Assembly (NCBI GenBank): GCA_919901915.1
Contig: CAKKQB010000013.1
Coordinates: forward strand, 64,192 to 128,191
Length of the DNA: 64,000 nucleotides
Source of the DNA: Omnitrophica bacterium GWA2_41_15
Lineage (GTDB): Bacteria > Omnitrophota > Gorgyraeia > Gygaellales > Profunditerraquicolaceae
Reading direction: 5' to 3'
This document shows positions 44,662 to 62,380 of the stretch, in pieces. A program made the translations under genes and the position numbers. The notes below the pieces were generated by a model. That model was not told where the DNA came from. It worked only from the letters and a program-made list of their open reading frames with translations, and searched no databases. The number at the start of each line of letters is the position of its first letter. Position 1 is the first letter of the stretch.

Positions 44662-44741
44662 TAGCGGATAGCGTATAGCGTATATATAGGTTTTACTATC
44701 CGCTATACGCTCTACGCTATACGCTATACGCTTGATATTTT
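44662..44741. repeat. family F palindrome between nfnB and nfnA
   Basis: agcggat agcgtat agcgtat / atccgct atacgct ctacgct atacgct atacgct. Confidence 0.85.
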
Positions 44742-45569
44742 AAGATTACAGATATGCTTTTCTTTATCTAAATAAACACTGTTCCTCTTTGTCAATTCAT
44801 CCCAATTTACTTGAGTTCCGTCAAATTCCGGGCCATCAACGCAAGCAAATTTCGTCTTACCTGCCACAGTTACACGGCAACAGCCGCACATTCCAGTAGC
44901 ATCTACCATCAAAGGATTCAAAGAAACAATGGTTTTAACTTTAAAATCGCTAGCAACCTCGCAAACTCTTCTCATCATCGGTATCGGGCCGACTGCGTAA
45001 ATTAGCGAATAGCGGATAGCGGATAGTGAATAGCTTAATACCTCCTGCAAAATATCAGTAACAAAGCCTTTCCTGCCGCAAGAACCGTCATCAGTGGTTA
45101 TATAAAGCTCATCGCAAAACACCTTTAGCTCCTGCTCCAAAATCAATAAATCATTGTTTCTTGCGCCCAGTATAGTAGTAGTATGGTTTCCCGCTTCTTT
45201 CAAAGCCTTGGCAACCGGATAAATCTCCGCAATTCCTACGCCTCCGCCTACAAGAATTAAATTTCCAAAATTTTTAATCTCAGTAGCATGCCCCAGGGGC
45301 CCGGCCAAAGCGTATAATGAATCACCAACCTCCATCTTGCCCAGCAACTTAGTAGTTAAGCCAACCTCTTGAAAGATCAAGGTAATTGTGCCTATGTCAG
45401 AATTTTTATCTACTATAGTTAGAGGTATCCTTTCGCCTTCCTCGCATACCATAAGAACAACAAATTGGCCCGGTCTTACTTTCCTGGCAATAAGCGGGCT
45501 TAAGATTTCAAAGCGCTTAATTGTTACGTCTTGCGTTTGTGCTAAAATTTCTTTTTTGATTATCCGCAT
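44724..45569 (-). CDS. nfnA: NfnA/SudB (PyrK-like FAD/[2Fe-2S] subunit); in-frame heptamer-repeat insertion
   Basis: 281 aa; C-terminal CGCC...C 2Fe-2S; segment LSYSLSAIRYSLI encoded by repeat 45003-45036. Confidence 0.75.
   Translation of the reverse strand: MRIIKKEILAQTQDVTIKRFEILSPLIARKVRPGQFVVLMVCEEGERIPLTIVDKNSDIGTITLIFQEVGLTTKLLGKMEVGDSLYALAGPLGHATEIKNFGNLILVGGGVGIAEIYPVAKALKEAGNHTTTILGARNNDLLILEQELKVFCDELYITTDDGSCGRKGFVTDILQEVLSYSLSAIRYSLIYAVGPIPMMRRVCEVASDFKVKTIVSLNPLMVDATGMCGCCRVTVAGKTKFACVDGPEFDGTQVNWDELTKRNSVYLDKEKHICNLKISSV
45003..45036. repeat. family F single arm inserted in frame in nfnA
   Basis: agcgaat agcggat agcggat agtgaat. Confidence 0.75.
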
Positions 45570-47650: not shown

Positions 47651-47718
47651 GCGTTTAGCGGATAGCGTTTAGCGTATAGTTTTTTTTATCCGCTATACGC
47701 TCTACGCTATACGCTATT
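47651..47718. repeat. family F palindrome between lrp and aminotransferase
   Basis: arms around T8 loop. Confidence 0.85.
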
Positions 47719-48202
47719 AATACGATATAGCTATCCTCTTATTCTCTTCCCTGTGCTTCAAAATCACTCCATCTTCCTTATATTTTTTTAATAAAAAGTG
47801 CGTGACTATGCCGCGGATATTCTCGAGGCAAGAAAGTTTCTCCGCTACAAATTGTGAAACTTTTTGTAAATTCTTGCCCTCAACTATAACCAAAAGGTCA
47901 TACGTGCCGGAAATCAAGCAACAGTCAGTTACCTCCGGAAACGAATAAATACGCTCAGCAATTTTATCAAAACCAATATCCTTTTGCGGAGCAATATTAA
48001 CCTCTATCAAAGCCCTGACGGAAGGCTCTTCGGTTTTAATTAAATCCTTATTTATTACTGTTTTATATTTTAAAATTATCCCCTCTTTTTCATACTTTTT
48101 TATCGCCTCTTTTATTGCCTCCGGCTTTTTCTTTAACATTTTCGCGATCTCTTCCGGAGTTACAAGCGCGTTCTTTTCTAATATCTCTAATATTTCGTCC
48201 AT
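47717..48202 (-). CDS. lrp: Lrp/AsnC-family transcriptional regulator
   Basis: 161 aa; HTH + RAM domain. Confidence 0.85.
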   Translation of the reverse strand: MDEILEILEKNALVTPEEIAKMLKKKPEAIKEAIKKYEKEGIILKYKTVINKDLIKTEEPSVRALIEVNIAPQKDIGFDKIAERIYSFPEVTDCCLISGTYDLLVIVEGKNLQKVSQFVAEKLSCLENIRGIVTHFLLKKYKEDGVILKHREENKRIAISY

Positions 48203-48225
48203 TACCTCGCTCCTTTCAGTCGCTC

Positions 48226-48288
48226 GGAGAGAACAGATTACAGAGTACGGATTACTGAAAGATTTTTCTGTGCTCTGTTCTCTGTGCT
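48226..48288. repeat. family G heptamer palindrome (CAGAGAA/CAGAGCA units) forming nadE 3' end
   Basis: gagagaacagattacagag ... ctgtgctctgttctctgtgc. Confidence 0.8.
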
Positions 48289-49008
48289 TTCTTTAATATA
48301 GCATATTTTCGGCCCTTCCCTCTTATGCTCTGATTTCTTTACCATATTTTTTACTTTATTTACTTTCTCTTTTGATAAGACCTGTTTCTTCTTGTTTTCC
48401 AAACGCTCCAATATGTCATCTAACTCGTTATAGGTAAGCCCCATTTCTCCTTCATCGGTCTGGCCTGGCCAGAGTCCGGCAGTAGGCGGCTTAGTAACAA
48501 TGGATTCGGGAATCTTTAATTCTTTAGCCAATGCCCTTACCTGTTTTTTTAATAAACCGCCGATTGGCAAAATATCCGTTGCCCCGTCGCCATACTTGGT
48601 AAAATAACCGACTTCAATTTCAGATCTATTTCCTGTGCCGCAGACAAGATAATTAAGTTTATTGGCAAAATAATATAAAACTAACATCCTTAAGCGCGGT
48701 TTTAAATTTGCCAAAGCTAACGGCCCCGCTTTGGGTAAAATTTTCATGACATTGTCGTAAATATCAGCCAAATCAATTAATTTTATTTTTATCCCAAATT
48801 TCCTTGCCACTAACTTTGCGTCATCTAAATCCTGTTTTTGACTATGACAGCCAAGAAACAAAACCAAAAGTTTTTGTTTACCCAGCGCTTCCCTGGCTAA
48901 AACAGCTACCACCGCGGAATCTATCCCCCCGCTTAAACCCATAACAATACCCTTTGCCTTAGCCGCTTTGACCTGCTGCCTAATCCAAGAAATAATTTTC
49001 TTTTTCAT
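48238..49008 (-). CDS. nadE: NH3-dependent NAD+ synthetase; C-terminus supplied by heptamer repeat
   Basis: GLSGGIDSAVVAVLA PP-loop; last 16 aa STENRAQKNLSVIRTL encoded by repeat 48226-48288. Confidence 0.85.
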   Translation of the reverse strand: MKKKIISWIRQQVKAAKAKGIVMGLSGGIDSAVVAVLAREALGKQKLLVLFLGCHSQKQDLDDAKLVARKFGIKIKLIDLADIYDNVMKILPKAGPLALANLKPRLRMLVLYYFANKLNYLVCGTGNRSEIEVGYFTKYGDGATDILPIGGLLKKQVRALAKELKIPESIVTKPPTAGLWPGQTDEGEMGLTYNELDDILERLENKKKQVLSKEKVNKVKNMVKKSEHKREGPKICYIKESTENRAQKNLSVIRTL

Positions 49009-49107
49009 ATTTTATTTAAAAATATCACCTAAATAAACCGGGACCGAGAACCGCCCCTGTTTCTTGCCCCTGCTTCTCACAATATTGCACTTTTAAGCAA
49101 TGCTCGT

Positions 49108-49815
49108 TTACGCGGCTTCGCGCAAAAAATTTGTACCCCTGCAGGCGCCGACGCAAACTCCGCAAACATATTGATCTGCTAATCTCTGCTTTTGAAACTC
49201 CTTTAACTTCTCAAAACACTTGATATGATCAAATTCTGTTGCTTCCTCTTTTATTGCTCCAGAGGGACATATTTTAGCACAAAGCATACAACTACCGCAA
49301 TCTTTTTTTACCGGCTTATCTATTTTCAAAGGCATATTGGTAAGTATGGTAACTAAGCGAAATTGACTTCCTAAGGTTTCGTTAACCAATAAATTATTCC
49401 TGCCAATCCAGCCTAAACCAGCTAAGACACCTATCTTTTTATGCGAAAGATGCGCCTTTTGGTTCTGCCAATCTAAAATTATTGAAGCAGGAATTGGCAA
49501 GGCAAGAAAACTTTTTTTCTGTATGTAATTACATATTTTAAGGCTACTCTGATCCAAAAACGCGTTGACTACGCGATAATGATGAAAATAAAGACGGGTA
49601 GGACTATCAACAATTTCTTCTAAAATACTCCCGGATAACCTTACGCCCAGGCAAACCGCGCTATCTAATTTATCAATGGCCTTGCCAGATAAAAGAAAAT
49701 CCTTTTTTATCTCTTTGATATCCGCGACACCAAATAAATCTATACCTAAATCCTGACAGAATTTCTTTAATTGCGAATAATTTTTATTTTTGCTTACACT
49801 CTCTTGCATATACAA
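49108..49815 (-). CDS. epoxyqueuosine reductase (QueG)-like 4Fe-4S protein, short form
   Basis: 235 aa; GLGWIGRNNLLVN...LGSQFRLVTILT like QueG core; CGSCMLCAKICPSGAI ferredoxin motif. Confidence 0.5.
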   Translation of the reverse strand: MYMQESVSKNKNYSQLKKFCQDLGIDLFGVADIKEIKKDFLLSGKAIDKLDSAVCLGVRLSGSILEEIVDSPTRLYFHHYRVVNAFLDQSSLKICNYIQKKSFLALPIPASIILDWQNQKAHLSHKKIGVLAGLGWIGRNNLLVNETLGSQFRLVTILTNMPLKIDKPVKKDCGSCMLCAKICPSGAIKEEATEFDHIKCFEKLKEFQKQRLADQYVCGVCVGACRGTNFLREAA

Positions 49816-49832
49816 TTATCAAAAACCACCCT

Positions 49833-49901
49833 GTCATTCTGAGGCCCTGAAGGGGCCGAAGAATCTCGACGCTAATAAGATCCTTCGCTTCGCTCAGGAT
49901 G
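49833..49901. repeat. family B internal hairpin module without TIRs, overlapping mnmG 3' end
   Basis: gtcattctgaggccctgaaggggccgaagaatctcgacgctaataagatccttcgcttcgctcaggatgac. Confidence 0.7.
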
Positions 49902-51773
49902 ACAAAAATGAGATATTTTCTTCAAATACACCATTAAAATAGAAATGGCCGCGGGCGTTACTCCGGAAATTCGCGAAGCCTGGCCCAGATTTAATGGCCT
50001 AAACTTACTTAGCTTTTCTTTAACCTCTCTCGAAAGGCTATTGATAGCAGTATAATCCAACCCCTCCGGAAGCCTGATTTTTTCTAAATTTTTAAATCTC
50101 TCCACATCCTTTAATTGCCTCCGGATAAATCCCGCGTATTTTACCTCAATTTCAATCTGACGTAAAGCTAATTCCGGAAAATTATTGAAAAAATCCTCCT
50201 GGCACAAGTTTTTTAATTTCTCGATGTCAATCTGCGGCCTTTTTAAGAGCTCCTCAAGAGTTACGGATTTCTTTAAAGGAGAACTACTATATTGGGTCAG
50301 CTTATCATTGACCTCCCGCGTTGGCTTAAGACGCGTATTTCTTATACAATTAAAACCTTCGGTTATCGCGTCTTTTTTCCTTTGTAATTTTTCATAATCC
50401 TTGCTATTTACCAATCCTAAATCATACCCTATTTTTCCAAGGCGTAAATCCGCGTTATCTTCGCGCAAGATCAAGCGATATTCCACGCGCGAAGTAAACA
50501 TCCGGTATGGCTCAAGAGTTCCCTTAATAGTTAAATCATCTATCAATACGCCAATATAGCTGGTCGCGCGATCCAAAATCAATGCCTCCTTAGATTTTAC
50601 TCTTAAGGCCGCGTTTATTCCCGCGATTAAACCCTGGGCTGCTGCTTCCTCATAACCGGTAGTGCCATTAATTTGTCCGGCAAAATATAAATTCTTAATC
50701 AATTTTGTTTCTAAAGAAAGCTTTAGCTGGGTAGGCTCTGCCACAGTATGCTCTATTCCATAACCAAAACGAATAATTTTAGCATTCTCTAATCCTTCAA
50801 TTGAATGTATTAAGTCCGATTGCGCGTCTTCAGGCAAACTTGTGGACAGGCCATTCGGATACACCTCATCCGTAGACAAACCTTCTAGCTCCAGAAACAC
50901 CTGGTGCCTTTCTTTATCAGAAAATTTAACAATTTTGTCTTCAACTGACGGACAATAGCGGACTCCCGTTGCCTTGATAAGGCCGGTATAGAGCGGAGAA
51001 CGGCATAAATTATCAAGAATAATTTTATGAGTTCTTTTATTTGTATAGGTTATATGGCAGGGAACTTGTTTTTGTATTAACTTTTCACTTGAAAAAGAAA
51101 ACGCTCGCGCCGGATTATCCCCTTCCTGAACTATAAGCTTAGAAAAATCTATTGTATTCTTATCTAAGCGGCTGCAGGTCCCGGTTTTAAATCTAAGCAA
51201 ATAGAAACCTAACTCCTTTAGGTTATTTGTCAGGCCTATCGCCGCTGGCTCATTGATGCGCCCCGCGCTAAAAGACTTAAGGCCAACATAGATTAAGCCA
51301 TCTAAAAACGTGCCCGGACAGATAACCACGGTTTTGGATAAAATCTCCTCGTCCTTACTCGTAACCACCCCCATCACTATATTATCAGAAACTACCAATC
51401 TTTTTACCTCCGCCTCTTTGATAAAAAGATTTTCCTGTTTCTCCAATATTTCCTTCATATACTGGCTGTATATTTCCATATCCACCTGCGCGCGGGATGA
51501 TTGCACAGCCGGCCCCTTAGAGGCATTAAGAATTCTAAACTGAATTCCGCTAAAATCAGCGGCCTTCGCCATTTGCCCGCCCAAGGCATCAATCTCTTTT
51601 ACAAGCTGGCCCTTGCCTACTCCGCCAATCGCCGGATTACAGCTCATCAAGCCTATTGTTTTCACGCTCAAAGTAATAATAAGCGTCTTGCAGCCCATCC
51701 GCGCTGAAGCCAACCCTGCCTCAATTCCAGCATGGCCGGCGCCAATAATTATAACGTCGTAATTTTGAGTCAT
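49872..51773 (-). CDS. mnmG: tRNA uridine-5-carboxymethylaminomethyl modification enzyme MnmG; C-terminus runs into MITE
   Basis: 633 aa; IIIGAGHAG FAD motif; terminal HFCHPERSEGSY encoded by repeat 49872-49901. Confidence 0.95.
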   Translation of the reverse strand: MTQNYDVIIIGAGHAGIEAGLASARMGCKTLIITLSVKTIGLMSCNPAIGGVGKGQLVKEIDALGGQMAKAADFSGIQFRILNASKGPAVQSSRAQVDMEIYSQYMKEILEKQENLFIKEAEVKRLVVSDNIVMGVVTSKDEEILSKTVVICPGTFLDGLIYVGLKSFSAGRINEPAAIGLTNNLKELGFYLLRFKTGTCSRLDKNTIDFSKLIVQEGDNPARAFSFSSEKLIQKQVPCHITYTNKRTHKIILDNLCRSPLYTGLIKATGVRYCPSVEDKIVKFSDKERHQVFLELEGLSTDEVYPNGLSTSLPEDAQSDLIHSIEGLENAKIIRFGYGIEHTVAEPTQLKLSLETKLIKNLYFAGQINGTTGYEEAAAQGLIAGINAALRVKSKEALILDRATSYIGVLIDDLTIKGTLEPYRMFTSRVEYRLILREDNADLRLGKIGYDLGLVNSKDYEKLQRKKDAITEGFNCIRNTRLKPTREVNDKLTQYSSSPLKKSVTLEELLKRPQIDIEKLKNLCQEDFFNNFPELALRQIEIEVKYAGFIRRQLKDVERFKNLEKIRLPEGLDYTAINSLSREVKEKLSKFRPLNLGQASRISGVTPAAISILMVYLKKISHFCHPERSEGSY

Positions 51774-51823
51774 TCGTAAATATTATGAAGTAATTATCGT
51801 AAATATTTAATAGACAACCTGAT

Positions 51824-51987
51824 AACGAAAGTTCCTGTTTGCGCACGAAATTTTTTGCCATGCGCTACGGTTTACTCCTCGTTTCCGCAGTGACTTACCA
51901 AAAAAAACAAGTGCTCCAACTCGTCGTAAATCCTTGCGCACATTTGGCAAAAAAATTTCTAATTGTGCGCAAACAGGAACTTTCGTT
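51824..51987. repeat. 164-bp element bounded by 23-bp perfect inverted repeats (AACGAAAGTTCCTGTTTGCGCAC) adjacent to MITE A copy 2
   Basis: arms at 51824-51846 and 51965-51987. Confidence 0.65.
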
Positions 51988-52171
51988 GAGTCTGTTGCGA
52001 AATGCCATTTTTCGTCATTCCGGCGAAAGCCGGAATCCAGAACTCTTTGATTTCAATAGGCTTATGGATACCGGCGACCGAGGGCGAAATGCCCGAGGAA
52101 GTGTCAGAGCCCAACTGGGCTCGACCTTTCGCCGGTATGACGGTTTTAATGTATTTCGCAACAGTCCCTCG
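51988..52171. mobile_element. MITE family A, second copy
   Basis: ~95% identical to 8013-8218 including TIRs. Confidence 0.8.
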
Positions 52172-52280
52172 TTATCTGACAACCATCATTTTTTATCACA
52201 TTATTTACGAAAGAACCATAATTTTCCATATAAATTAAAAAAAATGCTATAATTTAGATTCTTTCGTATTTAAAATAATC

Positions 52281-52310
52281 CGTAGGGGCGGTTCGTGAAC
52301 CGCCCTTACG
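52281..52310 (-). terminator. 30-bp perfect palindrome CGTAGGGGCGGTTCGTGAACCGCCCTTACG downstream of apgM (terminator or repeat family)
   Basis: GC-rich 12-bp stem; minus strand followed by ATTATTTTAAAT. Confidence 0.5.
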
Positions 52311-52353
52311 ACGAAACATAAATCATTGAAACGGTTGATTGGCGCGTTTAATA

Positions 52354-53637
52354 TTATTCTCTCGCGCTTTTCACGAGGAGAGGCATGATATCCCGGCCAA
52401 GAAGCTCGCCAAGCGAACCAAGCGATGCCGCTTTTTCAGAAAAACTTAAAGAACCGTCGGGCTTAATGTTTCCACCCGAGATAAGCAAAGGAACGGGGTC
52501 AGAGGAATGGGCTTTTATGACGCAAACAGTAGAATGATCCGCGGTTACAGCAATAATCGTATTGTTTATATCTATTTTTGGCAAAAAGCTTGAAAAAAAA
52601 TACTTATCTATCGCTTCAATAATGTCTTTCTTTTTATTAAAATCTCCGTCGTGCGCTGGCTCATCAGGGCCTTTGATATGCACATAAATACCATCATATT
52701 TCTTCATTGATTCCAAAGCCACCTTAGCCCAAACAGGATAATCCACATCTAAATGCCCGCTTGCATCAGGAACATCAATTATATCCATACCTGTTAATAA
52801 GGCAATCCCTTTTTCTACAGGCATCTGCACAAATGAACCAAACTTTACATCGTAAAAACTCTGAATAGGGGGAAATTTAGGGATGTGGTCCCCCGCGTCA
52901 CGCGATAAAATCACATTGCCGGGCATCTTATTTTCAGAAATCCTCTTTTTATTAACTAAGGAATCATTTAAAACTTTATGGGATTTCTGGGTAAATTCAT
53001 TTAAAAGCGCGGCCGCCTCCTTTGACTCGGGTGAATTCTCGTATCCGGGCATAGGAATTGACTCAACCACAAAATTCTCAAATTTCTCCTTGGCAACACC
53101 AAACACACCCTCCCTGTCATACGCGGGATCAGTATTAGTAATCCATCCGGATAATCTAGAGCGAACCCCTCTTATCACCAAAATTCCGCGATGCCCAATA
53201 GTACTTTTAAATTCAAAAGTCGCGCTTGAAAGCGTAACCTTTGAATTAATTTCTTTTGATAAAGCGACAGCCTCTTCAGTGGTAAGATTTCTTCCCACGC
53301 GCCTATCCTTAATTGTCAAGCCATCTGGCGCCACTGTGGCAAAATTAACCCGGAAAGCCACATCACCATCATTTACAACCAACCCTTCCGCGAAAGATTC
53401 TAAGGGCCCTCTGCCTGTATAATATTTGTGCGCGTCATAGCCTAAAAGACTGATTACCGCGATATCCGACTCCGGAGCAATTCCCTTAGCAACAGGATAA
53501 ACAATACCGGTTCTGCCTTTTTGAGCAAGACGATCAAGATTAGGCGTTAAAGCCGCCTCTAAAGGAGTTTTATTACCTAATTCCTTAACCGGTAAATCAC
53601 CTAAACCATCGAGAACTATATAAATAATTTTTTTCAT
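52354..53637 (-). CDS. apgM: archaeal-type cofactor-independent phosphoglycerate mutase
   Basis: 427 aa; MKKIIYIVLDGLGD metalloenzyme N-terminus. Confidence 0.85.
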   Translation of the reverse strand: MKKIIYIVLDGLGDLPVKELGNKTPLEAALTPNLDRLAQKGRTGIVYPVAKGIAPESDIAVISLLGYDAHKYYTGRGPLESFAEGLVVNDGDVAFRVNFATVAPDGLTIKDRRVGRNLTTEEAVALSKEINSKVTLSSATFEFKSTIGHRGILVIRGVRSRLSGWITNTDPAYDREGVFGVAKEKFENFVVESIPMPGYENSPESKEAAALLNEFTQKSHKVLNDSLVNKKRISENKMPGNVILSRDAGDHIPKFPPIQSFYDVKFGSFVQMPVEKGIALLTGMDIIDVPDASGHLDVDYPVWAKVALESMKKYDGIYVHIKGPDEPAHDGDFNKKKDIIEAIDKYFFSSFLPKIDINNTIIAVTADHSTVCVIKAHSSDPVPLLISGGNIKPDGSLSFSEKAASLGSLGELLGRDIMPLLVKSARE

Positions 53638-53644
53638 ATTTTAT

Positions 53645-53700
53645 TAGCGCGGATAGCGTTTAATTTTTTCTATACGCTATACGCTCTACGCTATACGCTA
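53645..53700. repeat. family F palindrome between nrdJ and apgM
   Basis: agcgcggat agcgttt ... atacgct atacgct ctacgct atacgct. Confidence 0.85.
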
Positions 53701-53710
53701 AAACTTTTAT

Positions 53711-56068
53711 TTAACATTTACTAAATCCGCACCCCTGACATTTGACACAACCCTCTTCGTGACGCAATGTTCCTCCGCAATCAGGACAAACACCCATAAT
53801 CTCCCCATGCAATTTAGCGTTAAAAATAACAGCTTCATCACTAGAAGAGTGCTTCATAGCCATATCTACGGATTCTAAAGAAGCTACAGCCGAGGCGCCA
53901 TTTATCAACCTTTTCTCAATCACACGGGCAATAGCATCAGCGCAAGAAAATATTCGCTGCCCCTTTTCCCATGATGGACTGGGACAACGGATATTGCGCA
54001 ATTGCTCAATAATGGATTTTACCTCAATGCCTGAACGAAAAGCCAGAGAAACCAACCGGCCAATAGCTTCGAGCTGAGAAGCAGCGCAACCACCGGCTTT
54101 ACCCATCTGAGTAAAAAGCTCAAAAGGCATACCTCCTTCATCACTATTGGTTGTTATATATAAGTTACCGCATCCTGTAGCGACTTTGGTCGTTGTGCCG
54201 CTAATTACTTCCGGCCGCGGCTGCGGAGCAATTTCTTTCTTAGTCTCTGGAGTTTTTGTATCCTGTTTTTGCTCATTATGCGCGATATTTAAAACCTGTT
54301 CTTCACGGCTCCTATCACGATATATGGTAATACCCTTACAACCCAATTCATAAGCCAGCTCATAAGCGCGCTCGACATCTTCTATTGTTGCCTCATGAGG
54401 AAAATTAATAGTTTTGGATACAGCGTTATGTGTATATTTCTGAAAGACAGCCTGCATACGCACATGCCACTCAGGCGAAATATCGTGCGAAGTAACAAAT
54501 ACCCTCCTTATGTCTCCGGGAATATCCTTAAAATCATGAATAGAACCTTTTTCAGTAATTCTTTGTATCAACTCGCGGCTATAAAAACCTCTTTCACGCG
54601 CCACCTTTTCAAATAACGGCTCAACCTCCATCAATTTATTATTATCCATTACATTACGATAATAGGATAAAGCGAATAACGGCTCTATCCCTGAAGAACA
54701 GGGCCCGGCAATAATACTAATTGTTCCGGTAGGAGCAATAGTAGTTAAAGTGGCATTGCGCAGACGCAACCCCTTAGAACCTTCTTTTTTATCATAAATA
54801 CTGCCTTCAAAAACAGGAAATAATCCTTTCGTCTTGCCTAATTCCTGCGACTTCTTAATTGCCTCATTTAACACAAAAGACATCACCTTATCGGCAAGGT
54901 TAACCGCTTCATCGCTATTGTAAGGAATATTAAGCTGTATTAATAAACTTGCCCAACCCATAACGCCTAAACCGATTTTACGCGTTAATTTTGTGGCTTT
55001 TTCTATAGCAGGTAATGGAAATTTATTTACATCAATAAGATTGTCCAGAAAATACACGGCTAAATGCGTTACGCTTCTTAATTTATCCCAATCAATCCGT
55101 TCGGCGCACTTTGTTTGCTCAGGATTGATGGTGAGCGTAGTCGAACCATCAATTTCACAGCCTCCTGCTCCTTTTTCCTTAATCATCCGCGCCAAATTTA
55201 CAGAACCTAAATCACAACTTTCATAAGGCAAAAGTACTTGCTCACCACACGGATTTGTTGATTCATATCTTCCCAATTTCGGCGTGGGATTAAAATCATT
55301 CATCCTATCAATAAAAATAAGTCCTGGTTCGCCATTCTTATGCGCCTGTTTTACGATTAAATCAAATACTTTTTTCGCGCTAAGCTGCCGGACGGCTTTA
55401 TTTGTATGGGGGTCAATCAAATCATACTCTTGTCCATTTTGTAATTTCCGCATAAAATCATGAGTTATGGCAACCGAAATATTGAAATTAGTAATCTCTT
55501 TATTACTGTTCTTACAAGTAATAAATTCCAATATATCCGGATGGTCTACACGCAAAATACCCATGTTAGCGCCTCTGCGGCAACCGCCCTGCTTTACCGC
55601 CTCTGTTGCCGCATCATAAACTCTCATAAAAGAAATCGGGCCTGAGGCAACCCCTCCAGTGGTTCTAACCATAGAGTTTTTAGGGCGCAGGCGAGAAAAA
55701 GAAAACCCTGTACCTCCACCGGATTGATGAATCAGAGATGTTGCTTTTAATGTTTCAAATATCGACTCCATAGAATCTTCAATGGGAAGTGTAAAACAAG
55801 CGCTCAATTGAGCAAGCTCTTTTCCCGCGTTCATAAGGCAAGGCGAATTCGGCATAAATTCCAAGGCAGTCATAATACGATAAAAAGCCTCTTCTAATTG
55901 AGCTATCTCTTCTTCTGTCTTACCATAAAGTTTATCCGCGCTGGCAATCGCTTTTGCTACACGGCGAAATAACTCTTGCGGCTTTTCGACAACACAACCC
56001 GTCTCATCCTTGCTCAAATATCTTTTTTCTAATACCTTTAAAGCATTCTCAGAAAGTTTTAATGTCAT
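53711..56068 (-). CDS. nrdJ: class II (adenosylcobalamin-dependent) ribonucleotide reductase
   Basis: 785 aa; LKVLEKRYL N-terminus, catalytic Cys loop, C-terminal CPDCGG...CVKCQGC zinc ribbon. Confidence 0.9.
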   Translation of the reverse strand: MTLKLSENALKVLEKRYLSKDETGCVVEKPQELFRRVAKAIASADKLYGKTEEEIAQLEEAFYRIMTALEFMPNSPCLMNAGKELAQLSACFTLPIEDSMESIFETLKATSLIHQSGGGTGFSFSRLRPKNSMVRTTGGVASGPISFMRVYDAATEAVKQGGCRRGANMGILRVDHPDILEFITCKNSNKEITNFNISVAITHDFMRKLQNGQEYDLIDPHTNKAVRQLSAKKVFDLIVKQAHKNGEPGLIFIDRMNDFNPTPKLGRYESTNPCGEQVLLPYESCDLGSVNLARMIKEKGAGGCEIDGSTTLTINPEQTKCAERIDWDKLRSVTHLAVYFLDNLIDVNKFPLPAIEKATKLTRKIGLGVMGWASLLIQLNIPYNSDEAVNLADKVMSFVLNEAIKKSQELGKTKGLFPVFEGSIYDKKEGSKGLRLRNATLTTIAPTGTISIIAGPCSSGIEPLFALSYYRNVMDNNKLMEVEPLFEKVARERGFYSRELIQRITEKGSIHDFKDIPGDIRRVFVTSHDISPEWHVRMQAVFQKYTHNAVSKTINFPHEATIEDVERAYELAYELGCKGITIYRDRSREEQVLNIAHNEQKQDTKTPETKKEIAPQPRPEVISGTTTKVATGCGNLYITTNSDEGGMPFELFTQMGKAGGCAASQLEAIGRLVSLAFRSGIEVKSIIEQLRNIRCPSPSWEKGQRIFSCADAIARVIEKRLINGASAVASLESVDMAMKHSSSDEAVIFNAKLHGEIMGVCPDCGGTLRHEEGCVKCQGCGFSKC

Positions 56069-56149
56069 TTTTTTTCTCCCTATCGTATTACATTTGACAC
56101 TATCATATTACACGTATTGTCAAAAGTATTTAGTTAATTCTTTTATATC

Positions 56150-56225
56150 TGCTGGCTCTTGTCATTCCGGCGAAAGCCGGAATCCAGTCTTCTGGACCCC
56201 GGCTTTCGCCGGGGTGACATCTTAA
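56150..56225. repeat. pair of family A-type hairpins upstream of nrdJ
   Basis: gtcattccggcgaaagccggaatccag + ctggaccccggctttcgccggggtgac. Confidence 0.65.
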
Positions 56226-56338
56226 ATTTTCTATAATAAGTATAACCTATACAAAAATTTTTGTCAAGAAAAAAACACAATCTATAGTATTATATTAAAT
56301 TAAGTATACAATATGCTGTATTTTACCTCGAGTGGGGT

Positions 56339-57367
56339 TTAACCGGGATTTAAAGGTTGACAGGATTCCCTGATAATTAATTCTGATGGCAAAATTATTT
56401 TTTCTATTTTCTCATTATTCCCCGGACGCATAAGCAAGTTTATTTTTTTTACGCTTTCCTCGCCCATCTTAATCAGGGGCTGCCGGACTGTAGTTAAAGC
56501 TACCGGGCCATAAAGACCGGATGGATTATCATCAAAACCTACGATAGACAAATCAGCAGGTATCTTTTTGCCCAATTCTCTGGCTACGCTCATTACCTCC
56601 AAAGCCATAGCATCCGAAGAAACAAATACAGCAGAAGGCCCGTCTTGCATCTTAAGCAAATTTTCCGCGGCACTCCTGGCCTGGCCGCGAGAATAATCCG
56701 TTCTAAATATATATTTTTCGTCTAACGTGATATTGTTCTTCTCTAAAATATGCTTATACCCCTCAAAACGCTGAGTTGCCGCTTGCGTAGCCAAATCGCC
56801 CGTAATATGCGCTACTTTTCTATGCCCCAAACTAATTAAATAATTAACTGCTACCTCCGCTCCGCCTGTATTATCAACAGCAATACAATTAACATTTAAG
56901 TCTTCAATGAAATTATTAATTACCACGCAAGGAATATTATTATCCAGCACGTCTAAAAGCTGTTGGCGATTACCGATAATATCAGCAAAAATTATGCCGC
57001 CTAAACCGCTTAAATTTAAAAATGCCTGCCTATTAGTAAGATGTAACAATAAATCTAATTTTAACGCGTCGCAAAGCGTGCCGATACCGCGTATCAACTC
57101 CAGCGCGTAAAATGAATAAAAAATCCCTTCATATTGCGGCATAACCAAAGTTACTACATTGCTTTTTCCTGTGGCAAGCCTTTGCGCGAATATTGATGGT
57201 TTAAATTTAAGCTCCTCAATTACCTCCAATACCTTAGCGCGATTCTTTTCTCCTACTGTGGGAATTTTATTTATCACACGCGAAACTGTAGTAATAGATA
57301 CCCGGGCTTTACGGGCAACATCCTCTATGGAAATAGTCTTGGAAGGAGTTTTTCTAATGCGGCTCAT
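56339..57367 (-). CDS. LacI-family transcriptional regulator
   Basis: 342 aa; N-terminal HTH (ISIEDVARKARVSITTVSRVIN) + periplasmic-binding-fold sugar domain. Confidence 0.85.
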   Translation of the reverse strand: MSRIRKTPSKTISIEDVARKARVSITTVSRVINKIPTVGEKNRAKVLEVIEELKFKPSIFAQRLATGKSNVVTLVMPQYEGIFYSFYALELIRGIGTLCDALKLDLLLHLTNRQAFLNLSGLGGIIFADIIGNRQQLLDVLDNNIPCVVINNFIEDLNVNCIAVDNTGGAEVAVNYLISLGHRKVAHITGDLATQAATQRFEGYKHILEKNNITLDEKYIFRTDYSRGQARSAAENLLKMQDGPSAVFVSSDAMALEVMSVARELGKKIPADLSIVGFDDNPSGLYGPVALTTVRQPLIKMGEESVKKINLLMRPGNNEKIEKIILPSELIIRESCQPLNPG

Positions 57368-57384
57368 TCATTAAATCACAAATA

Positions 57385-57460
57385 TACACGAATTTTTTAA
57401 CACGGATTTTCACGGATCTATCCGTGCCCATCCGTATCTTATTTATTCGTGTATATCAAG
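57385..57460 (-). promoter_or_regulatory. cluster of 6 motifs in both orientations (incl. palindrome CACGGATCTATCCGTG) upstream of LacI-family gene
   Basis: acacgaattttttaacacggattttcacggatctatccgtgcccatccgtatcttatttattcgtgt. Confidence 0.6.
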
Positions 57461-57462
57461 TG

Positions 57463-58326
57463 CTATCTAACAACATCCCCGATCTTAACGGGAAACATTT
57501 CTCTCTTTATATCACAAGCCGCGATATTGCTGCGAGTCTGAATCACTTCAAGAGAAGCGATAAGTTGATCTTCTCTATAAACCCGAAAGATATCACCTAC
57601 CTTGGCGCCCGCGTCAAACCCTAAATTTATAATCACGAAATTACTCTCTTTATTTATTGCTAATACTTTGCCCCTAACGGGCACGACAGGTATTTCCCGC
57701 GCTTCGGGTTCTGCCGATGGACGCACCACAATGGGAGATAGCTCTATGGCTTTTATACCATCCCTTACCTCTTCGGCCTTAGGTATCCGCGGCCCGGGCG
57801 CGCTTTGAATAACATCCGGCTGTTCTTTAAGGTTATCTACCTGCGCTACAGGGCTTGGTATTATCTGCTCTTCTCCTTCAAAACTTTGTTCAACCTTTAT
57901 CTTCTCTTTTTGTGAATCCTGAAATTTTTTCTCCAGATCATTCTTTTGCTCGTTCAACTTACTTAATTGCCGCGTTAGAATCTTATTATCATTTTTTAAT
58001 ACCTCAAATCTCTGCTCTAATAGAGCCTTGGCATTCTTCTCTTCCTCTAATTCACTCGTTATACTATCTATTGCTTTTTGAAGGCCATCCTTTTCCGAAG
58101 AAATCTCATCCATCCCAGCGCTTAAAGAATTAAGCTTTTTTTCATAATCATGCGCGTCGCTTTTAAGCTTATTAATACCATTCTCTAATGTTACCTTTTC
58201 CTCTTTTAAAACTTCTTTATCTCTTATTAATTGCTGCTTAACGCCTTGGGCTTGTATAAAAAGAAGAAAAAAAACTATCGCGAAACCCGCAAGACCTATT
58301 ATAATAAATTTTGTTTTTTGCTCCAT
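57463..58326 (-). CDS. membrane-anchored coiled-coil protein with C-terminal small beta domain (unknown function)
   Basis: 287 aa; N-terminal TM, ~150 aa coiled coil, Pro-rich linker, C-terminal VRGKVLAINKESNFVIINLGFDAGAKVGDIF..VKIGDVV. Confidence 0.5.
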   Translation of the reverse strand: MEQKTKFIIIGLAGFAIVFFLLFIQAQGVKQQLIRDKEVLKEEKVTLENGINKLKSDAHDYEKKLNSLSAGMDEISSEKDGLQKAIDSITSELEEEKNAKALLEQRFEVLKNDNKILTRQLSKLNEQKNDLEKKFQDSQKEKIKVEQSFEGEEQIIPSPVAQVDNLKEQPDVIQSAPGPRIPKAEEVRDGIKAIELSPIVVRPSAEPEAREIPVVPVRGKVLAINKESNFVIINLGFDAGAKVGDIFRVYREDQLIASLEVIQTRSNIAACDIKREMFPVKIGDVVR

Positions 58327-58364
58327 CAGTTCTCCTCAGAAAAGAAAACTTATACTTACTCTAA

Positions 58365-59591
58365 TCAAACAAATGTTTTCTGCATAACAAGGCTTGCCGC
58401 GCCTAATGCTACCGCGTTTTCTCTTAGCTGGGAATAAACTATCCTTAAATCATCGGTTGCCTCCCTAAAAGCCCAAGACTTAACCGTAAAATTAACCTTA
58501 CTTAAAAAATCATCTCCTGCTTCTTCAAGCCCGCCTCCGATAACAACAGTCTGGGGATTAAGCAAATTCACAAGATGCGCGATTTTTATACCTAACCTTC
58601 TGGCTGCCACTTCTAAAACTGAAAGCGCGATTTCATCCCTTGAGCGCACAGCTATAAATACACTTTTTAAATCCACATTATCTATATTACTTGAGGTAAG
58701 CTTAAAAAACTTTTCCGCCTTCTCCTTATCCTTAGCCAGCATTAACTTCACATCGCTGACAATACCCATATCCATTTCCCAATGCTTTATAAAACAACTG
58801 TTGCCGAGAGAACAATTAAAATCATCCTGCTCCTTATAATTAGAAATTGAAACTTCTCCGGCGTAACCTTGAGACCCGCGGTAACAATCGCCATTAATCA
58901 TAATTCCGCACCCCACACCTGAGAACATAAATATAGCATTACTAATATCACGGTTTAGAACAAACCATTTCTCGCCGAAACAAGCGGCGGTCGCGTCATT
59001 TTCAATTAATACTGGTAAATTAAATTCTTTTCCTAATAGATCGCCTAAAGGAAAATCTGCCGAAGCATACGTATAACAATGATCCATCTTTTGAGGCCAG
59101 TGTATGGAACCATTTTTTTTGTTAATCAAACCGGCAATACCTACACCAATGCCTCTTATTTTAGGAGTATACTCCTTTGAGCGCCTGAAAATCTCCCGAA
59201 CAATCTCAAGCAGGCATTCAGCAATATCTTTAACAGAAGGCCTTGGACGGACAATCTGTGTTTTGGTAATGATGTTGCCTTTTAAATCTATCAAAAGGCC
59301 AACCATGTTCATAAGATTTAATCCTACCCCGATAACATAACCGGCTTGAGAATTTAAATCCAAAAGAACAGGCCTTCTTCCGCCTTCCGAAGTATCTAAT
59401 TCTTTCTCGTAAATTAAATCCTGTTTTATAAACTCATCGATATAACTAGAGATAGTTACTACATTTACGCCCATCTCTTTAGATATATCCGGACGGCTTA
59501 TAGGCCCATGCCTTCTTAATATTTCCAATATATCAATATTGCGTTTCTCTTTTTCTGATAAAATTTCTTTTTGAAGGTTTAATGAAGACAT
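58365..59591 (-). CDS. ROK-family transcriptional regulator (HTH + sugar-kinase-like domain)
   Basis: 408 aa; N-terminal wHTH, ROK signature with Cys/His zinc motif. Confidence 0.85.
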   Translation of the reverse strand: MSSLNLQKEILSEKEKRNIDILEILRRHGPISRPDISKEMGVNVVTISSYIDEFIKQDLIYEKELDTSEGGRRPVLLDLNSQAGYVIGVGLNLMNMVGLLIDLKGNIITKTQIVRPRPSVKDIAECLLEIVREIFRRSKEYTPKIRGIGVGIAGLINKKNGSIHWPQKMDHCYTYASADFPLGDLLGKEFNLPVLIENDATAACFGEKWFVLNRDISNAIFMFSGVGCGIMINGDCYRGSQGYAGEVSISNYKEQDDFNCSLGNSCFIKHWEMDMGIVSDVKLMLAKDKEKAEKFFKLTSSNIDNVDLKSVFIAVRSRDEIALSVLEVAARRLGIKIAHLVNLLNPQTVVIGGGLEEAGDDFLSKVNFTVKSWAFREATDDLRIVYSQLRENAVALGAASLVMQKTFV

Positions 59592-59737
59592 CTAGCGCAC
59601 CATAAGTATAATTTTTATAAAATTTTCGTACCCGCCATTAACTATTTATACTACTAAAAATAGGGCAAGTCAAGAAAAATCGTAGAGATTATTTCGTGTT
59701 TAAGGTAATAAACGTAGATTAAATATAAAAGATATTT

Positions 59738-59767
59738 GTAGGGGCGGTTCGCGAACCGCCCAAATAA
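59738..59767 (-). terminator. near-identical palindrome GGGGCGGTTCGCGAACCGCCC downstream of GH gene
   Basis: minus strand followed by AAATATCTTTTATATTT. Confidence 0.5.
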
Positions 59768-59775
59768 TAGAATTA

Positions 59776-61116
59776 TTAATGAAATTTTTTCTTGGCTTTT
59801 TTTGAGATACACAAGGCGGGATTTTTCCAAAACTCTTTGAGCGTATAATAAGCTTTGCGGGGAGAGCGTTTATTCAACCTTTGTCCTGCCGGGTCTTTAC
59901 TGCCTAATAAGGCATCCTCAGGCTCTTGCGACAATGCCACAATACCAAACCACTCTTCATTCATATTTTTATTGCCTTCTACCTTTATATCAAAATAATA
60001 GTTTCCGTTAGACCAATTCGAACCAGTATCATGCTCGAGCCACGTATCAGAGGCATGCTCATCATACTTCCACCATTCATCTGACCACTCAAAAATAACG
60101 CCGCCTAAACAATTGCCCGCGCCTTTCTTATTACCCGCCAGATTCCCATAAATCTGACACCATTGAGATTCCAGGAAAAATGCCTGCATATCCTGATCTT
60201 CCTTTTTTAAATAGGCATCATAACAATCAGCACCAATTTCTACCAAAAGAATTGGCTTGTCAAAAGTTAATTTTAAAGATTTAAAAAGGTTTCCAAAGGT
60301 CTTACCTCTATAGATAATGCAAGCAATCAAATCTACGTCAGGACAATATTCCTTCGCGTATTCCAACCCTGTCAACTCGCCATTCCCCAATGCCACAGGA
60401 TGTTGAGGGTCGAGTTCATGGACAGCTTTCGTCAAATCATTTACATAAGAATAATAAATCCTGGAACGTATGGCTCCTTGTTTCTGGGGATCTGGTTCTT
60501 TTTCTGCTTCTTCGCAGGCCCAAGGATTAACACGGCCTAAACAAGAATAGTTATTTTCATTGCCCATAATCCACATAAGCAATCCGGGCTCGTCCTTATA
60601 TAAGCTGACCATATCCAGGACATCTTTCTTTATTCTTTCCTGAAAACCCTTATCTCCATAGAATGGGCCGGGATACTCCCAAAAAGATAACCAATGGCCT
60701 AAAATTGTGCGTATTCCGTAAAGCTGATAAAGCTCGCTAATTACTTTTTTTACCGCTTCTGGATTATCTCCCGGCTGATAAATTCTTATGGTATTAACCC
60801 CCATCTCATGCATCAGTTTTCCGTCTACAATCCAAGGTTTATTGGGGTCAGACCACCAGTCATATTCGTGATTCTTACCAATAGGAACAGGATTATAACA
60901 AACCCCTTTTACGATGTAAGGTTTTTTATCTACTATCAACTGGTAGTAATTATTTTTAAGTTTTTTAATATAAACTCCGGGCTTTGGCTTTGAGGCCATA
61001 CCCATTAAAAACAGAACACAGAGCACAGAAAACAGAGAACAGAATATTTTTCTCTGTGCTCTGCGCTCTGTTCTCTGTGCTCTATTTTCCGTTCTCTTAT
61101 TCATACTTAATTTCAT
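59776..61116 (-). CDS. putative clan GH-A (TIM-barrel) glycoside hydrolase; N-terminus encoded by heptamer repeat
   Basis: 446 aa; MGVNTIRIY, IMGNENNY (acid/base), GGVIFEWSDEWWK (nucleophile region); paralog of 62381-63961; start uncertain (alternative Met at MGMASKP). Confidence 0.65.
   Translation of the reverse strand: MKLSMNKRTENRAQRTERRAQRKIFCSLFSVLCVLFLMGMASKPKPGVYIKKLKNNYYQLIVDKKPYIVKGVCYNPVPIGKNHEYDWWSDPNKPWIVDGKLMHEMGVNTIRIYQPGDNPEAVKKVISELYQLYGIRTILGHWLSFWEYPGPFYGDKGFQERIKKDVLDMVSLYKDEPGLLMWIMGNENNYSCLGRVNPWACEEAEKEPDPQKQGAIRSRIYYSYVNDLTKAVHELDPQHPVALGNGELTGLEYAKEYCPDVDLIACIIYRGKTFGNLFKSLKLTFDKPILLVEIGADCYDAYLKKEDQDMQAFFLESQWCQIYGNLAGNKKGAGNCLGGVIFEWSDEWWKYDEHASDTWLEHDTGSNWSNGNYYFDIKVEGNKNMNEEWFGIVALSQEPEDALLGSKDPAGQRLNKRSPRKAYYTLKEFWKNPALCISKKAKKKFH
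61001..61074. repeat. family G heptamer palindrome forming 5' end of GH gene
   Basis: aacagaacacagagcacagaaaacagagaacagaa / tctgtgctctgcgctctgttctctgtgctct. Confidence 0.8.
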
Positions 61117-62290
61117 CTAAATAAAATGTTACTCCTTGCGGATTATTGTCAAGATTAGCCGCCCAGCAGAAACCACCGATAATATAGGACATATCCTTGC
61201 CCTTTAAATCAATAGAATACTGTGTCCATTCTTTGTTCAGGATAACCGGGCCAATATTAGCTGAATCAGAATCAGAATATTCCCCCATTATTCCGCCAAC
61301 CTTAAATTCCTCGATACGCTCTCCTCCATTTTCTCCGTGCGCCCAAAAGGATAATTTAACAGCCTTGGACAGATCATAACCCGCGTCTATTGTTCCCCAG
61401 TTATTAGCCGGCTCCTGCCAAAACATCCCCGCCCAACGACTGCCTTGAGAAGCCTTATTACCATAAATAATTTTAATACAAGTATCTCCTAAATAAGGGT
61501 TCTCCTTCGACGTTCCATTAAATTTCAAATCACTGTAATCACCCATCCAACCCGAAGAAATAAAGTGGTTTATGGAAGACCTATCAGCATAAACATAGAA
61601 AGGCATCTCCTTTTGTTTTTTGCCTTCCGGTTTCATAGCTGAATCAACCTCAAACTTTATATCGTCAATAAAAAATTTGGCTCCTTCGAGATTCAAATCA
61701 GCGGTAGTAATCCACGAGAAACCACCGCTTACACAAGATAAGTCTTTCCCCGCAAGATTAATTGTATATTGCTTCCATACATCAGTAAGTTCGATCGGCC
61801 CCATTTGCGCGTCTACTGAATCTGGATATGTATTTTTTGGCTCAATACCAATTCCGCCGACCTTTACCTTCTCTATCACTTCCCCGCCTTTAGCGCCTCT
61901 TGCCCAAAAAGTTAACTTAGTCATCCCGGTTAAATCATACCCGCCTTTTTTGCTTCCCCAATTATTAGCCGGATTCTGCCAATAAACACCTACCCATTCC
62001 TTGCCTTGCGATCTCTTGGCGGTATATTCAAATTCAATGCAAGTACTTCCTGAATGAGGGTCTTCCGTAGACTGATCATTCATCTTAACATCGCCATAAT
62101 CACCCATCCATCCGGAAGGGGCATAATGATTTTCACGGCTATTTCTATCCGCGTAAACCACGAATTCCTTAGTGCCCGCGACACTCTCAACAACTTGAGT
62201 TGTTTCTCCGGTTTCCCCTGCTTCCTGCGCCATTACGCAAAAAGGCAACGCCAAAATCGCTGCTACTAACACCACTAACAACTTCTTCAT
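61097..62290 (-). CDS. secreted protein with two tandem ~170-aa carbohydrate-binding-module-like repeats
   Basis: 397 aa; signal peptide; internal duplication YADR.S..NHY.PSGWMGDY...W.G..WQ.PANNWG..GYDL..L.FWA.G..GGE.IE..KVGGI. Confidence 0.55.
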   Translation of the reverse strand: MKKLLVVLVAAILALPFCVMAQEAGETGETTQVVESVAGTKEFVVYADRNSRENHYAPSGWMGDYGDVKMNDQSTEDPHSGSTCIEFEYTAKRSQGKEWVGVYWQNPANNWGSKKGGYDLTGMTKLTFWARGAKGGEVIEKVKVGGIGIEPKNTYPDSVDAQMGPIELTDVWKQYTINLAGKDLSCVSGGFSWITTADLNLEGAKFFIDDIKFEVDSAMKPEGKKQKEMPFYVYADRSSINHFISSGWMGDYSDLKFNGTSKENPYLGDTCIKIIYGNKASQGSRWAGMFWQEPANNWGTIDAGYDLSKAVKLSFWAHGENGGERIEEFKVGGIMGEYSDSDSANIGPVILNKEWTQYSIDLKGKDMSYIIGGFCWAANLDNNPQGVTFYLDEIKYE

Positions 62291-62308
62291 TTTACCCCTC
62301 CCATTTTT

Positions 62309-62378
62309 CGTATTACGTGATGCGTGACGCGTATCGCGTTAAAATTTTCGCAATACGCACAACGCACGACGCAATACG
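62309..62378. repeat. family H heptamer palindrome (CGTGACG/CGTATCG units) between CBM and GH genes
   Basis: cgtatta cgtgatg cgtgacg cgtatcg ... gcaatac gcacaac gcacgac gcaatac. Confidence 0.75.
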
Positions 62379-62380
62379 AA

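Follow-up and report, generated by a model that had tools for sequence, protein, structure and literature searches.

Heptamer palindromes within reading frames at two gene junctions of an Omnitrophota genome: a NadE tail and a predicted signal peptide

What becomes of a short palindromic repeat at the junction of two genes when the reading frame of one of them runs straight through it? Two places in a 64,000-nucleotide stretch of DNA of Omnitrophica bacterium GWA2_41_15, hereafter the window, raise this question. There, copies of one heptamer-built palindrome, called family G, lie inside the open frames of nadE and of a glycosidase-like gene. An earlier note on this DNA had seen in them a repeat that rewrites protein ends, giving NadE its C-terminus and the glycosidase a newly made secretion signal. 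We favour the explanation that stop-free heptamer palindromes at gene junctions were absorbed into the reading frames at both sites, and give it, as a whole, a probability of about 0.7.

Homologs of nadE and of the glycosidase-like gene are likewise assigned to Candidatus Omnitrophota. The window has 40.5% G+C, its minus strand carries nearly all of the long open reading frames (ORFs), and it is rich in palindromes whose arms are made of tandem 7-base units. Palindromes of family 1, with the units TAGCGTA and TACGCTA, are found at no fewer than 8 gene junctions (at least 8 in the window), and those of family G, with the units CAGAGCA and CAGAGAA, at two places in the 64 kb:

48227..48291, minus strand: site A, family-G palindrome, arm 48267-48291 intact, arm 48227-48251 decayed.
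61007..61096, minus strand: site B, family-G heptamer palindrome; in the sense direction, 5′ arm 61096-61059, loop 61058-61045, 3′ arm 61044-61007.

Both sites are members of one repeat family. The 21-mer GCACAGAGAACAGAGCACAGA, taken from site A, matches the 64 kb with 0 to 3 mismatches only at sites A and B, for a chance expectation of 0.00 (100 shuffles); the two copies differ in it by 1 mismatch. The inverted-repeat arms of site A (48227-48251 and 48267-48291) are 25 nt long and 76% complementary, the right arm being an array of 3.1 copies of the heptamer TCTGTGC, and those of site B (61008-61043 and 61053-61088) are 36 nt long and 81% complementary. Site B, folded as sense RNA, gives a hairpin of 36 pairs over 61007-61096 (−50.4 kcal/mol, z = −7.9; 0 of 200 shuffles as stable). 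Decay of the downstream arm leaves site A with a less stable hairpin (−26.9 kcal/mol, z = −2.8). The DNA of both sites is identical in three assemblies (ERZ1292638, ERR3858133 and ERR3858135) from at least two read sets, which excludes an artefact of a single assembly. The occurrence of the family at these two sites, as claimed beforehand, is thereby confirmed; site B, however, extends about 22 nt past position 61074, where it had been taken to end.

What makes such an element readable is the composition of its unit. The family-G heptamer contains no stop codon in any frame of either strand, (CAGAGCA)n being read as QSTEHRA and (TGCTCTG)n as CSVLCAL, and a 7-base unit gives the same peptide in every entry frame, repeating each 21 nt. 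Being stop-free, with a peptide that does not depend on the frame of entry, the element can become part of a reading frame. Codons whose second base is A specify charged or polar residues, and their reverse complements, with T in the middle, hydrophobic ones. As a consequence of this complementarity, a hairpin read with its purine-rich arm first gives charged and then hydrophobic residues, which is the order of the n- and h-regions of a signal peptide.

In the scenario that we propose, family G would be one of several short heptamer palindromes of the genome located at junctions of co-directional genes. At nadE, where the sequence shows this outcome, the old stop codon has been lost, and the frame continues across one arm and the spacer until it meets a stop in the other arm, which lengthens the protein by 18 residues. 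At the second junction, the glycosidase ATG lies inside the last codons of the upstream gene (Leu-Asp-Glu), and because this start precedes the upstream stop, the glycosidase frame must cross whatever hairpin follows. The purine-rich 5′ arm would be read as a long basic n-region, and the reverse complement arm, with T at second codon positions, as a hydrophobic h-region, followed by the conserved G-M-A|S as cleavage site. The RNA stem-loop would mark or protect the 3′ end of the upstream message, or attenuate read-through into the glycosidase gene. The encoded peptide would be tolerated, and put to use, since all that a signal peptide requires is charge and then hydrophobicity. Kaiser et al. 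are said to have found in 1987 that the sequence requirement for signal peptides is loose.

The features of the glycosidase junction are as follows:

59776..61116, minus strand: glycosidase-like ORF, 446 aa, with a second in-frame ATG at 61104, 2 nt before the upstream stop.
61097..62290, minus strand: upstream gene, 397 aa, with a weak choice-of-anchor J match and an ordinary signal peptide of its own; stop codon TAA at 61097-61099.
60994..61116, minus strand: proposed signal peptide, glycosidase codons 1-41, the cleavage site being inferred from the homolog alignment.

The glycosidase ORF, whose N-terminus begins MKLSMNKRTENRAQRTERRAQRKIFCSLFSVLCVLFLMGMASKP, itself matches no Pfam or NCBIfam family. 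It has more than 2000 homologs, and is labelled a glycoside hydrolase because some of them carry PF26410, GH2_C or GH72 matches. The conserved end of the upstream protein, ...FYLDEIKYE*, contains the glycosidase ATG in another frame. Homologs have N-termini of two kinds. Some begin with a plain signal peptide, such as MKKFYFSALLFLLLALALGMSSRP. Most begin with M[KR]LS[TL]NK, after which a basic segment that varies and a hydrophobic segment lead up to the conserved LG(M)AS(K/R)PKPKVYIKKL.

Where does translation of the glycosidase start? To avoid the bias of gene callers, the raw DNA of 80 loci from species-representative genomes was analysed, and the 68 loci in which the same upstream gene is adjacent served for the counts of frames and hairpins. 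Measured from the upstream stop, the conserved GVCY motif lies 172 to 286 nt away, with about 20 different lengths, and this distance is 1 mod 3 in 57 of the 68 loci. A stop-free glycosidase frame is likewise found in 57 of 68, and the other two frames are open in none. In the 17 loci without the overlap arrangement, the same distances split 6/6/5 between the three residues, as expected of a non-coding spacer. A landmark in the 5′ arm lies 37, 40, 43, 49, 112 or 121 nt from the ATG, always 1 mod 3, which indicates that the stretch upstream of the hairpin is coding too. These comparisons make it most likely that translation begins at ATG 61116 or 61104 and proceeds through the palindrome, rather than at the downstream MGMASKP. 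The start at 61116 that had been assumed is therefore favoured over MGMASKP by the comparative frame data, with 61104 as the alternative.

It could be argued that site B is simply a non-coding intergenic repeat, the long ORF an accident, and the true glycosidase start the MGMASKP methionine (ATG 61003 or 60997). The palindrome does fill almost exactly the interval between the upstream stop (61097) and ATG 61003, an open frame is cheap when heptamers are stop-free, no good Shine-Dalgarno sequence stands ahead of ATG 61116, and some database gene calls of homologs start at MAS... The order stop, palindrome, own start also exists, in L004 and L033. Set against this, the hairpin is in frame and without stops in every one of the 52 loci with the overlap arrangement, neither of the other two frames is ever open, and length differences are always multiples of 3. 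ATG 61003 lacks a Shine-Dalgarno sequence as well. The methionine of GMAS is not conserved: plain-signal-peptide homologs have ...LGMSS or LGMAS aligned to LMGMAS of the window, elsewhere the residue is often Ala or Ser, and in many homologs a lipobox without Met (LSAC, LSGC or LAGC) takes the place of LGMAS. This substitution implies that the Met occupies position −2 of a cleavage site and is not a start codon. Finally, a protein begun at M38 would have no hydrophobic run, while the plain-signal-peptide and lipobox homologs point to export. We consider a non-coding site B very unlikely.

Less probable still is that translation begins within the palindrome itself, either in its loop or where the 3′ arm sets in, so that the hydrophobic arm alone would be coding, with the 5′ arm acting as a leader that pairs with the start and masks it. 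Several gene calls of homologs do begin right before the hydrophobic arm (MLFAAC.., MLLFTAC.., LLVACG..), and a TTG is present at the border of loop and arm in some relatives. In the window, however, there is no in-frame ATG, GTG or TTG from M5 to a GTG in the middle of the hydrophobic stretch. Moreover, all indels upstream of the 5′ arm, including palindrome insertions of 69 and 78 nt, are multiples of 3, a regularity for which a leader has no need.

Three customary indications of a start codon were of no help here. Conservation of the glycosidase ATG is not independent evidence, because the LDE motif of the upstream protein (ctgGATGAa; ...FYLDEIK[YF]E*) creates the ATG. The conservation of MKLSTNK was dropped as an argument, as it mirrors the upstream ...LDEIKYE* in another frame. 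Shine-Dalgarno sequences were uninformative, the purine motif found 15-17 nt upstream being explained by Pro-Glu/Gln-Gly codons. In two species (L059 and L069) the overlapping ATG is changed to ACG and an in-frame TTG stands immediately upstream, which suggests a non-ATG start in both.

Read from ATG 61116, the N-terminus can be compared with Sec signal peptides, which consist of an n-, an h- and a c-region and obey von Heijne's −3/−1 rule. Residues 1-23 form the n-region MKLSMNKRTENRAQRTERRAQRK, positively charged with 9 K/R for 2 D/E; its codons come in part from the upstream-gene overlap and in part from the 5′ arm and loop. Residues 24-38 form the h-region IFCSLFSVLCVLFLM, an uninterrupted hydrophobic core of 15-16 residues that corresponds exactly to the 3′ arm. 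Its hydropathy (Kyte-Doolittle 11-residue maximum 2.98, residues 28-38) compares well with that of a plain-signal-peptide homolog (L009, 3.16) and a lipobox homolog (2.91). The c-region, G39-M40-A41|S42, fits the −3/−1 rule and aligns with LGAS, LGAA, LGMS or the lipoboxes LSAC and LSGC of homologs. The likeness to Sec-type signal peptides thus lies in the basic n-region, the core of 15-16 residues and the small residues (G, A) at −3 and −1; the differences are an n-region of 23 residues and the fact that the whole n- and h-region sequence is set by a nucleic-acid palindrome. From this anatomy and from the homologs, we infer that the stretch acts as a signal peptide. The idea of a signal peptide made from the two arms of a palindrome holds as regards the basic n-region and the hydrophobic 3′ arm, except that the n-region also draws on the overlap and the loop. 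The idea that the repeat creates a secretion signal did not survive the comparison: palindrome-free relatives have ordinary signal peptides of the MKK-plus-hydrophobic type, which indicates that the glycosidase family was secreted before the repeat. Judging from these relatives, the repeat appears to rewrite an existing signal peptide, not to create secretion.

Is the hairpin peculiar to family G? Each of the 68 species has a hairpin between the upstream gene and the glycosidase domain; in 52 it is part of the reading frame, and in the other 16 it falls in a non-coding spacer. In the 52 loci with the overlap arrangement, the inverted repeat falls within the N-terminal coding part, about 40 nt past the ATG, with a median stem of 19 pairs and a loop of 7. 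All 16 plain-signal-peptide loci examined have a hairpin of 10-40 pairs in the spacer between the upstream stop and their own start. Many families occupy this slot: an ACAGG type (GCTACAGGnCGCAAG ... CTTGCGGCCTGTAGC, read as TG[RY][KR]..LL[AV]ACS), of which each locus has a single copy, always equally far from the conserved domain; a longer palindrome, GGGACGGTTCTCAA...TTGAGAACCGTCCC; family-1-type heptamers (L032); and ACAGA-type heptamers resembling family G (L039; proteins P0051, P0057 and P0100).

Covariation was computed on an alignment of the 27 loci with the ACAGG-type hairpin, using 500 shuffles. In this alignment 95% of cells are paired, and compensatory changes affect 11 of 15 pairs, compared to 6.4 +/− 1.4 in shuffles (1/500). 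Further pair types number 29, compared to 22.1 (0/500). Controls in which the partner was slid by 1 to 3 columns gave 28-49% pairing only, and RNAalifold independently predicts the same helix. The universal presence of the hairpin, together with its covariation, argues for selection on structure, and we infer that the fold of the nucleic acid is what selection keeps, in all likelihood a stem-loop of the RNA. Its place directly behind the stop codon of a co-directional gene points to a stabiliser of the 3′ end or an attenuator.

A role as intrinsic terminator of the upstream gene was rated low, as a T tract accompanies only about 2 of the 16 non-coding hairpins and the window copy departs from the consensus: it has 12 G-C pairs in the stem and a 14-nt loop, and the scan found no terminator there. 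Hairpins of relatives look more terminator-like, 38 of 52 having at least 5 T in 8 nt, a count in which the T tract is confounded with Phe and Leu codons; in L074 and L036 the slot hairpin is the best terminator-like site of the locus. Comparing sense and antisense folding energies did not serve as a test of an RNA hairpin, since the sense strand was the more stable one by 7.2 kcal/mol in hairpins and by 7.0 in ordinary coding windows of the glycosidase, a difference that is thus compositional. In Rfam 15, no family matches the hairpin; the window gave one tRNA only, and the relatives' hairpin one miRNA match at chance level.

The palindromes could also be translated and yet be purely selfish or neutral, the hairpin having no cellular role and being kept because insertions at junctions are harmless. 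In its favour, many unrelated palindrome families are found at the same two junctions across lineages, which indicates turnover, and one arm of site A is decaying. The missing Rfam match and a sense-versus-antisense stability without signal over the control agree with it too, and tolerated in-frame repeats are known in Rickettsia (PMC10969869). Yet decay without selection should have emptied many junctions, where the glycosidase junction carries a hairpin in 68 of 68 loci, and 27 species keep one hairpin in its position with compensatory changes in 11 of 15 pairs. We regard this explanation as rather unlikely.

A more elaborate proposal, which goes beyond absorption into the frames and which we consider unlikely as a whole, is that the element serves two uses at once. 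The RNA hairpin would end or attenuate the upstream transcript, ribosomes re-initiating at the overlapping start of the glycosidase would melt it, its codons would supply the signal peptide, and mobile or amplifying heptamer palindromes, family G among them, could replace it wholesale. The basis would be that codons for charged residues, when reverse-complemented, specify hydrophobic ones. If it were true, transcription would continue only while the glycosidase is translated, and a single repeat would supply both a regulatory RNA structure and a secretion signal.

Several points weigh against translated palindromes under selection as we read them. There is no Shine-Dalgarno sequence at normal spacing, AAGGAG and ATG 61116 being 15 nt apart, and GAAGG standing about 17 nt ahead of the start in relatives. 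A 36-pair hairpin that begins 21 nt after the start codon could hinder translation, and an n-region of 23 residues with 9 K/R is unusually long. Covariation could stem from repeated swaps of perfect palindromes or from hairpin-templated correction. Lastly, with two family-G copies only in 64 kb, the notion of a dispersed repeat is thinly supported.

Is family G then a recent arrival at the glycosidase? The repeat had been described as an insertion that creates a secretion signal there, a view weakened by the translated hairpins of other families that fill the slot in 52 of 68 species. On the comparative data, the slot is older than family G, which is the local occupant of a hairpin-in-signal-peptide arrangement, and is not clearly a fresh insertion. 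As the hairpin families share an ACAG core, family G at site B may have arisen in place, by heptamer amplification from the ancestral hairpin. The second copy, at nadE, shows that this sequence has reached another place in the genome too, by spreading or by copying. The longer palindrome GGGACGGTTCTCAA...TTGAGAACCGTCCC occurs in many Omnitrophota species, at the glycosidase junction in L005, L015, L028, L052, L004 and L068, and at the nadE junction in L083 (2213-2290). Sometimes translated (RDGSQLKAKVSP..GHF...LRTVP) and sometimes non-coding, it looks like a phylum-wide dispersed element.

At the nadE junction, where site A lies, the features are:

48238..49008, minus strand: nadE, NH3-dependent NAD+ synthetase, 256 aa, with profile matches.
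48241..48294, minus strand: 18 extra NadE codons, KESTENRAQKNLSVIRTL, not in orthologs; stop codon at 48238-48240.
47717..48202, minus strand: Lrp/AsnC-family regulator gene, downstream of nadE, with a Shine-Dalgarno sequence AAGGAG at about 48210-48216.

NadE ends in ...ICYIKESTENRAQKNLSVIRTL*, and its stop codon falls inside the left arm of the palindrome. Among its 120 closest homologs (about 70-78% identity), 76 are 238 aa long, and the commonest endings are ...SEHKRQGPKICYI or ...KICYV. The window protein runs on past ICYI with KESTENRAQKNLSVIRTL, 18 residues unrelated to the ends of orthologs, and the match to the NCBIfam NadE profile has almost reached the profile's end at about residue 242. 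The closest relative, L081, has TGT TAT GTT TAA here, and 14 nt that include GGAGGGG separate this stop from the ATG of the corresponding Lrp/AsnC gene. In the window, 92 nt replace the 17 nt of L081, about 75 nt extra, and the palindrome stands between TATATT and the AAGGAG of the Lrp/AsnC gene, which is retained intact just past it. AAAG is found on both flanks of site A, a 4-nt match too short to be judged as a target-site duplication. The claim that the repeat encodes the NadE C-terminus, with the stop in its left arm, thus stands: the translation matches, orthologs end 18 residues earlier, and repeat-free orthologs with a homologous tail were not found, L081 having its TAA and 14 nt instead.

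One extra T after TATATT would restore a TAA exactly at the ortholog stop position, and the tail might accordingly be put down to faulty sequencing or assembly that dropped one T of ATT-TAA-AGA in a run of T and A. Such an error is extremely improbable: the sequence is identical in the three assemblies, from at least two read sets and with 33x coverage in one, and the insertion of 75 nt is real with or without the missing T. Judged from the sequence, the NadE tail is real and repeat-encoded, and has no homology to ortholog termini. Two other lineages (L083 and L082) have different palindromes at exactly the nadE junction, each with its own NadE tail. The tail of the window protein shows no sign of a function and is probably a neutral, tolerated by-product.

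Family 1 offers a further case of a palindrome read in frame. Its unit has TAG on one strand, which means that long arrays close reading frames, and a short version is read in frame inside the large subunit of glutamate synthase (GltB; 37933-38015, within ORF 34743..39386, minus strand; ...LSADSVERIADRKSKTLYALRSTLYANKSYPLSANK...). Judged against PDB 7mfm and 1llw, the insert adds about 26 residues in a linker, between positions aligned to 447 and 460 of 7mfm. At 19017-19029, in a CarA-like gene, and at 44724-44754, in ORF 44724..45569, family-1 palindromes provide the last residues and the stop (...DSV* and ...SSV*).

How do these elements relate to known repeats? Ogata et al. reportedly described in 2000 Rickettsia palindromic elements (RPE) located inside genes. 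The likeness is that short palindromic repeats are translated within ORFs and tolerated in essential enzymes, here as the NadE tail, the glutamate synthase insert and the glycosidase N-terminus. The NadE tail and the GltB insert are, like RPE and in-frame MITE, in frame, internal to the ORF and absent from orthologs. The window elements do not belong to the described RPE families, from which length, heptamer build and an Omnitrophota host set them apart: RPE measure about 100-150 bp, form defined Rickettsia families and lie in surface loops, whereas these measure 65-90 nt, are built of heptamers and come from another phylum. In addition, one of them makes up a whole signal peptide, in a slot with a hairpin kept across species. 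In-frame fusions of MITE and RPE with host genes have been reviewed, and no signal-peptide case is found in that review (PMC10969869).

Other repeats resemble the window elements in position or structure. Our non-exhaustive literature search found no repeat or conserved hairpin forming a signal peptide, and no Omnitrophota palindromic repeats. REP, BIME and REPIN of proteobacteria are extragenic, present in hundreds of copies and tied to RAYT transposases. Family G shares with them imperfect palindromes at junctions of co-transcribed genes that can form mRNA stem-loops, for which we propose here a role as 3′-end stabiliser or attenuator. It differs in location, both copies lying in open frames and being read as translated where REP are extragenic; two copies are seen in the 64 kb. 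SPRITE are likewise dispersed repeats with the anatomy of an intrinsic terminator, and the slot hairpins of L074 and L036 are terminator-like; SPRITE are non-coding, however, and the window copy is outside the terminator consensus. Supply et al. reportedly described in 1997 the MIRU, intercistronic operon repeats with small ORFs that overlap flanking stops and starts. The intercistronic position and the overlap with stop and start codons of the flanking genes are common to both, but MIRU are direct tandem units of 40-100 bp, non-palindromic, and encode separate mini-ORFs. Cyanobacterial STRR are heptanucleotide tandem repeats. With heptanucleotide repeats the window elements share the 7-base unit, the tandem arrays and an intergenic preference beside start codons; those are direct arrays, whereas here opposite arrays form a hairpin that is translated. 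In Beggiatoaceae, TAACTGA heptanucleotide repeats have been described (PMC4679880).

Translated palindromic repeats are known mainly in Rickettsia, and are regarded as tolerated passengers in protein loops. Here a palindrome would supply an entire module, a predicted signal peptide, at a junction that keeps a hairpin, with compensatory changes, in dozens of species. This offers a testable case of one DNA stretch constrained by base-pairing and by the chemistry of an export signal together. For the annotation of Omnitrophota metagenomes, start choice and secretome prediction err if palindromes are assumed to be non-coding, and protein ends beside repeats (NadE tails, ...SV* ends) should not be taken as conserved features.

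Searching the loci of the other species with the family-G pattern gave no match. A metagenome scan returned 14 contigs (L090-L103) with (CAGAGMA)n arrays, that is, the family-G unit. Their GC content ranges from 29 to 66%, which shows that the host organisms are unrelated; the unit recurs in unrelated organisms and has little bearing on this genome. In two of the contigs (L090 and L100) the arrays are palindromic directly after a stop codon, and in a third (L102) an array is in frame in a PheS-like ORF (...CILCNG-AQRTEHREQKR-CSLCGGKGWLEILG...). The repeat-encoded peptide, too short a query to serve as a survey of other proteins, gave one weak match among 1.84 billion representative proteins, P0241, itself a heptamer-palindrome-like ORF.

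Further repeats were observed in the window. A third heptamer palindrome family (units ATTGCGT and CGTGCGT and their complement) lies at 62300-62380 in a non-coding spacer, where it precedes the Shine-Dalgarno sequence GGGAGG and the ordinary signal peptide MKKLLVVLVAAILALPFCVMA of ORF 61097..62290. A single-arm family-1 array is in frame at 45001-45033 in ORF 44724..45569, a PyrK/GltD-like oxidoreductase (...SYSLSAIRYSL...). A palindromic repeat not built of heptamers, GTCATTCCGGCGAAAGCCGGAATCCA and its complement, is present at 29287-29362 and 56160-56219, with arms 100% and 86% complementary. Decamer arrays of TTTATCCGTG were found at 8210-8255, 14013-14046 and 15178-15198, and positions 14714-15598 carry a perfect tandem duplication of 464 nt (1.9 copies, 100% identity).

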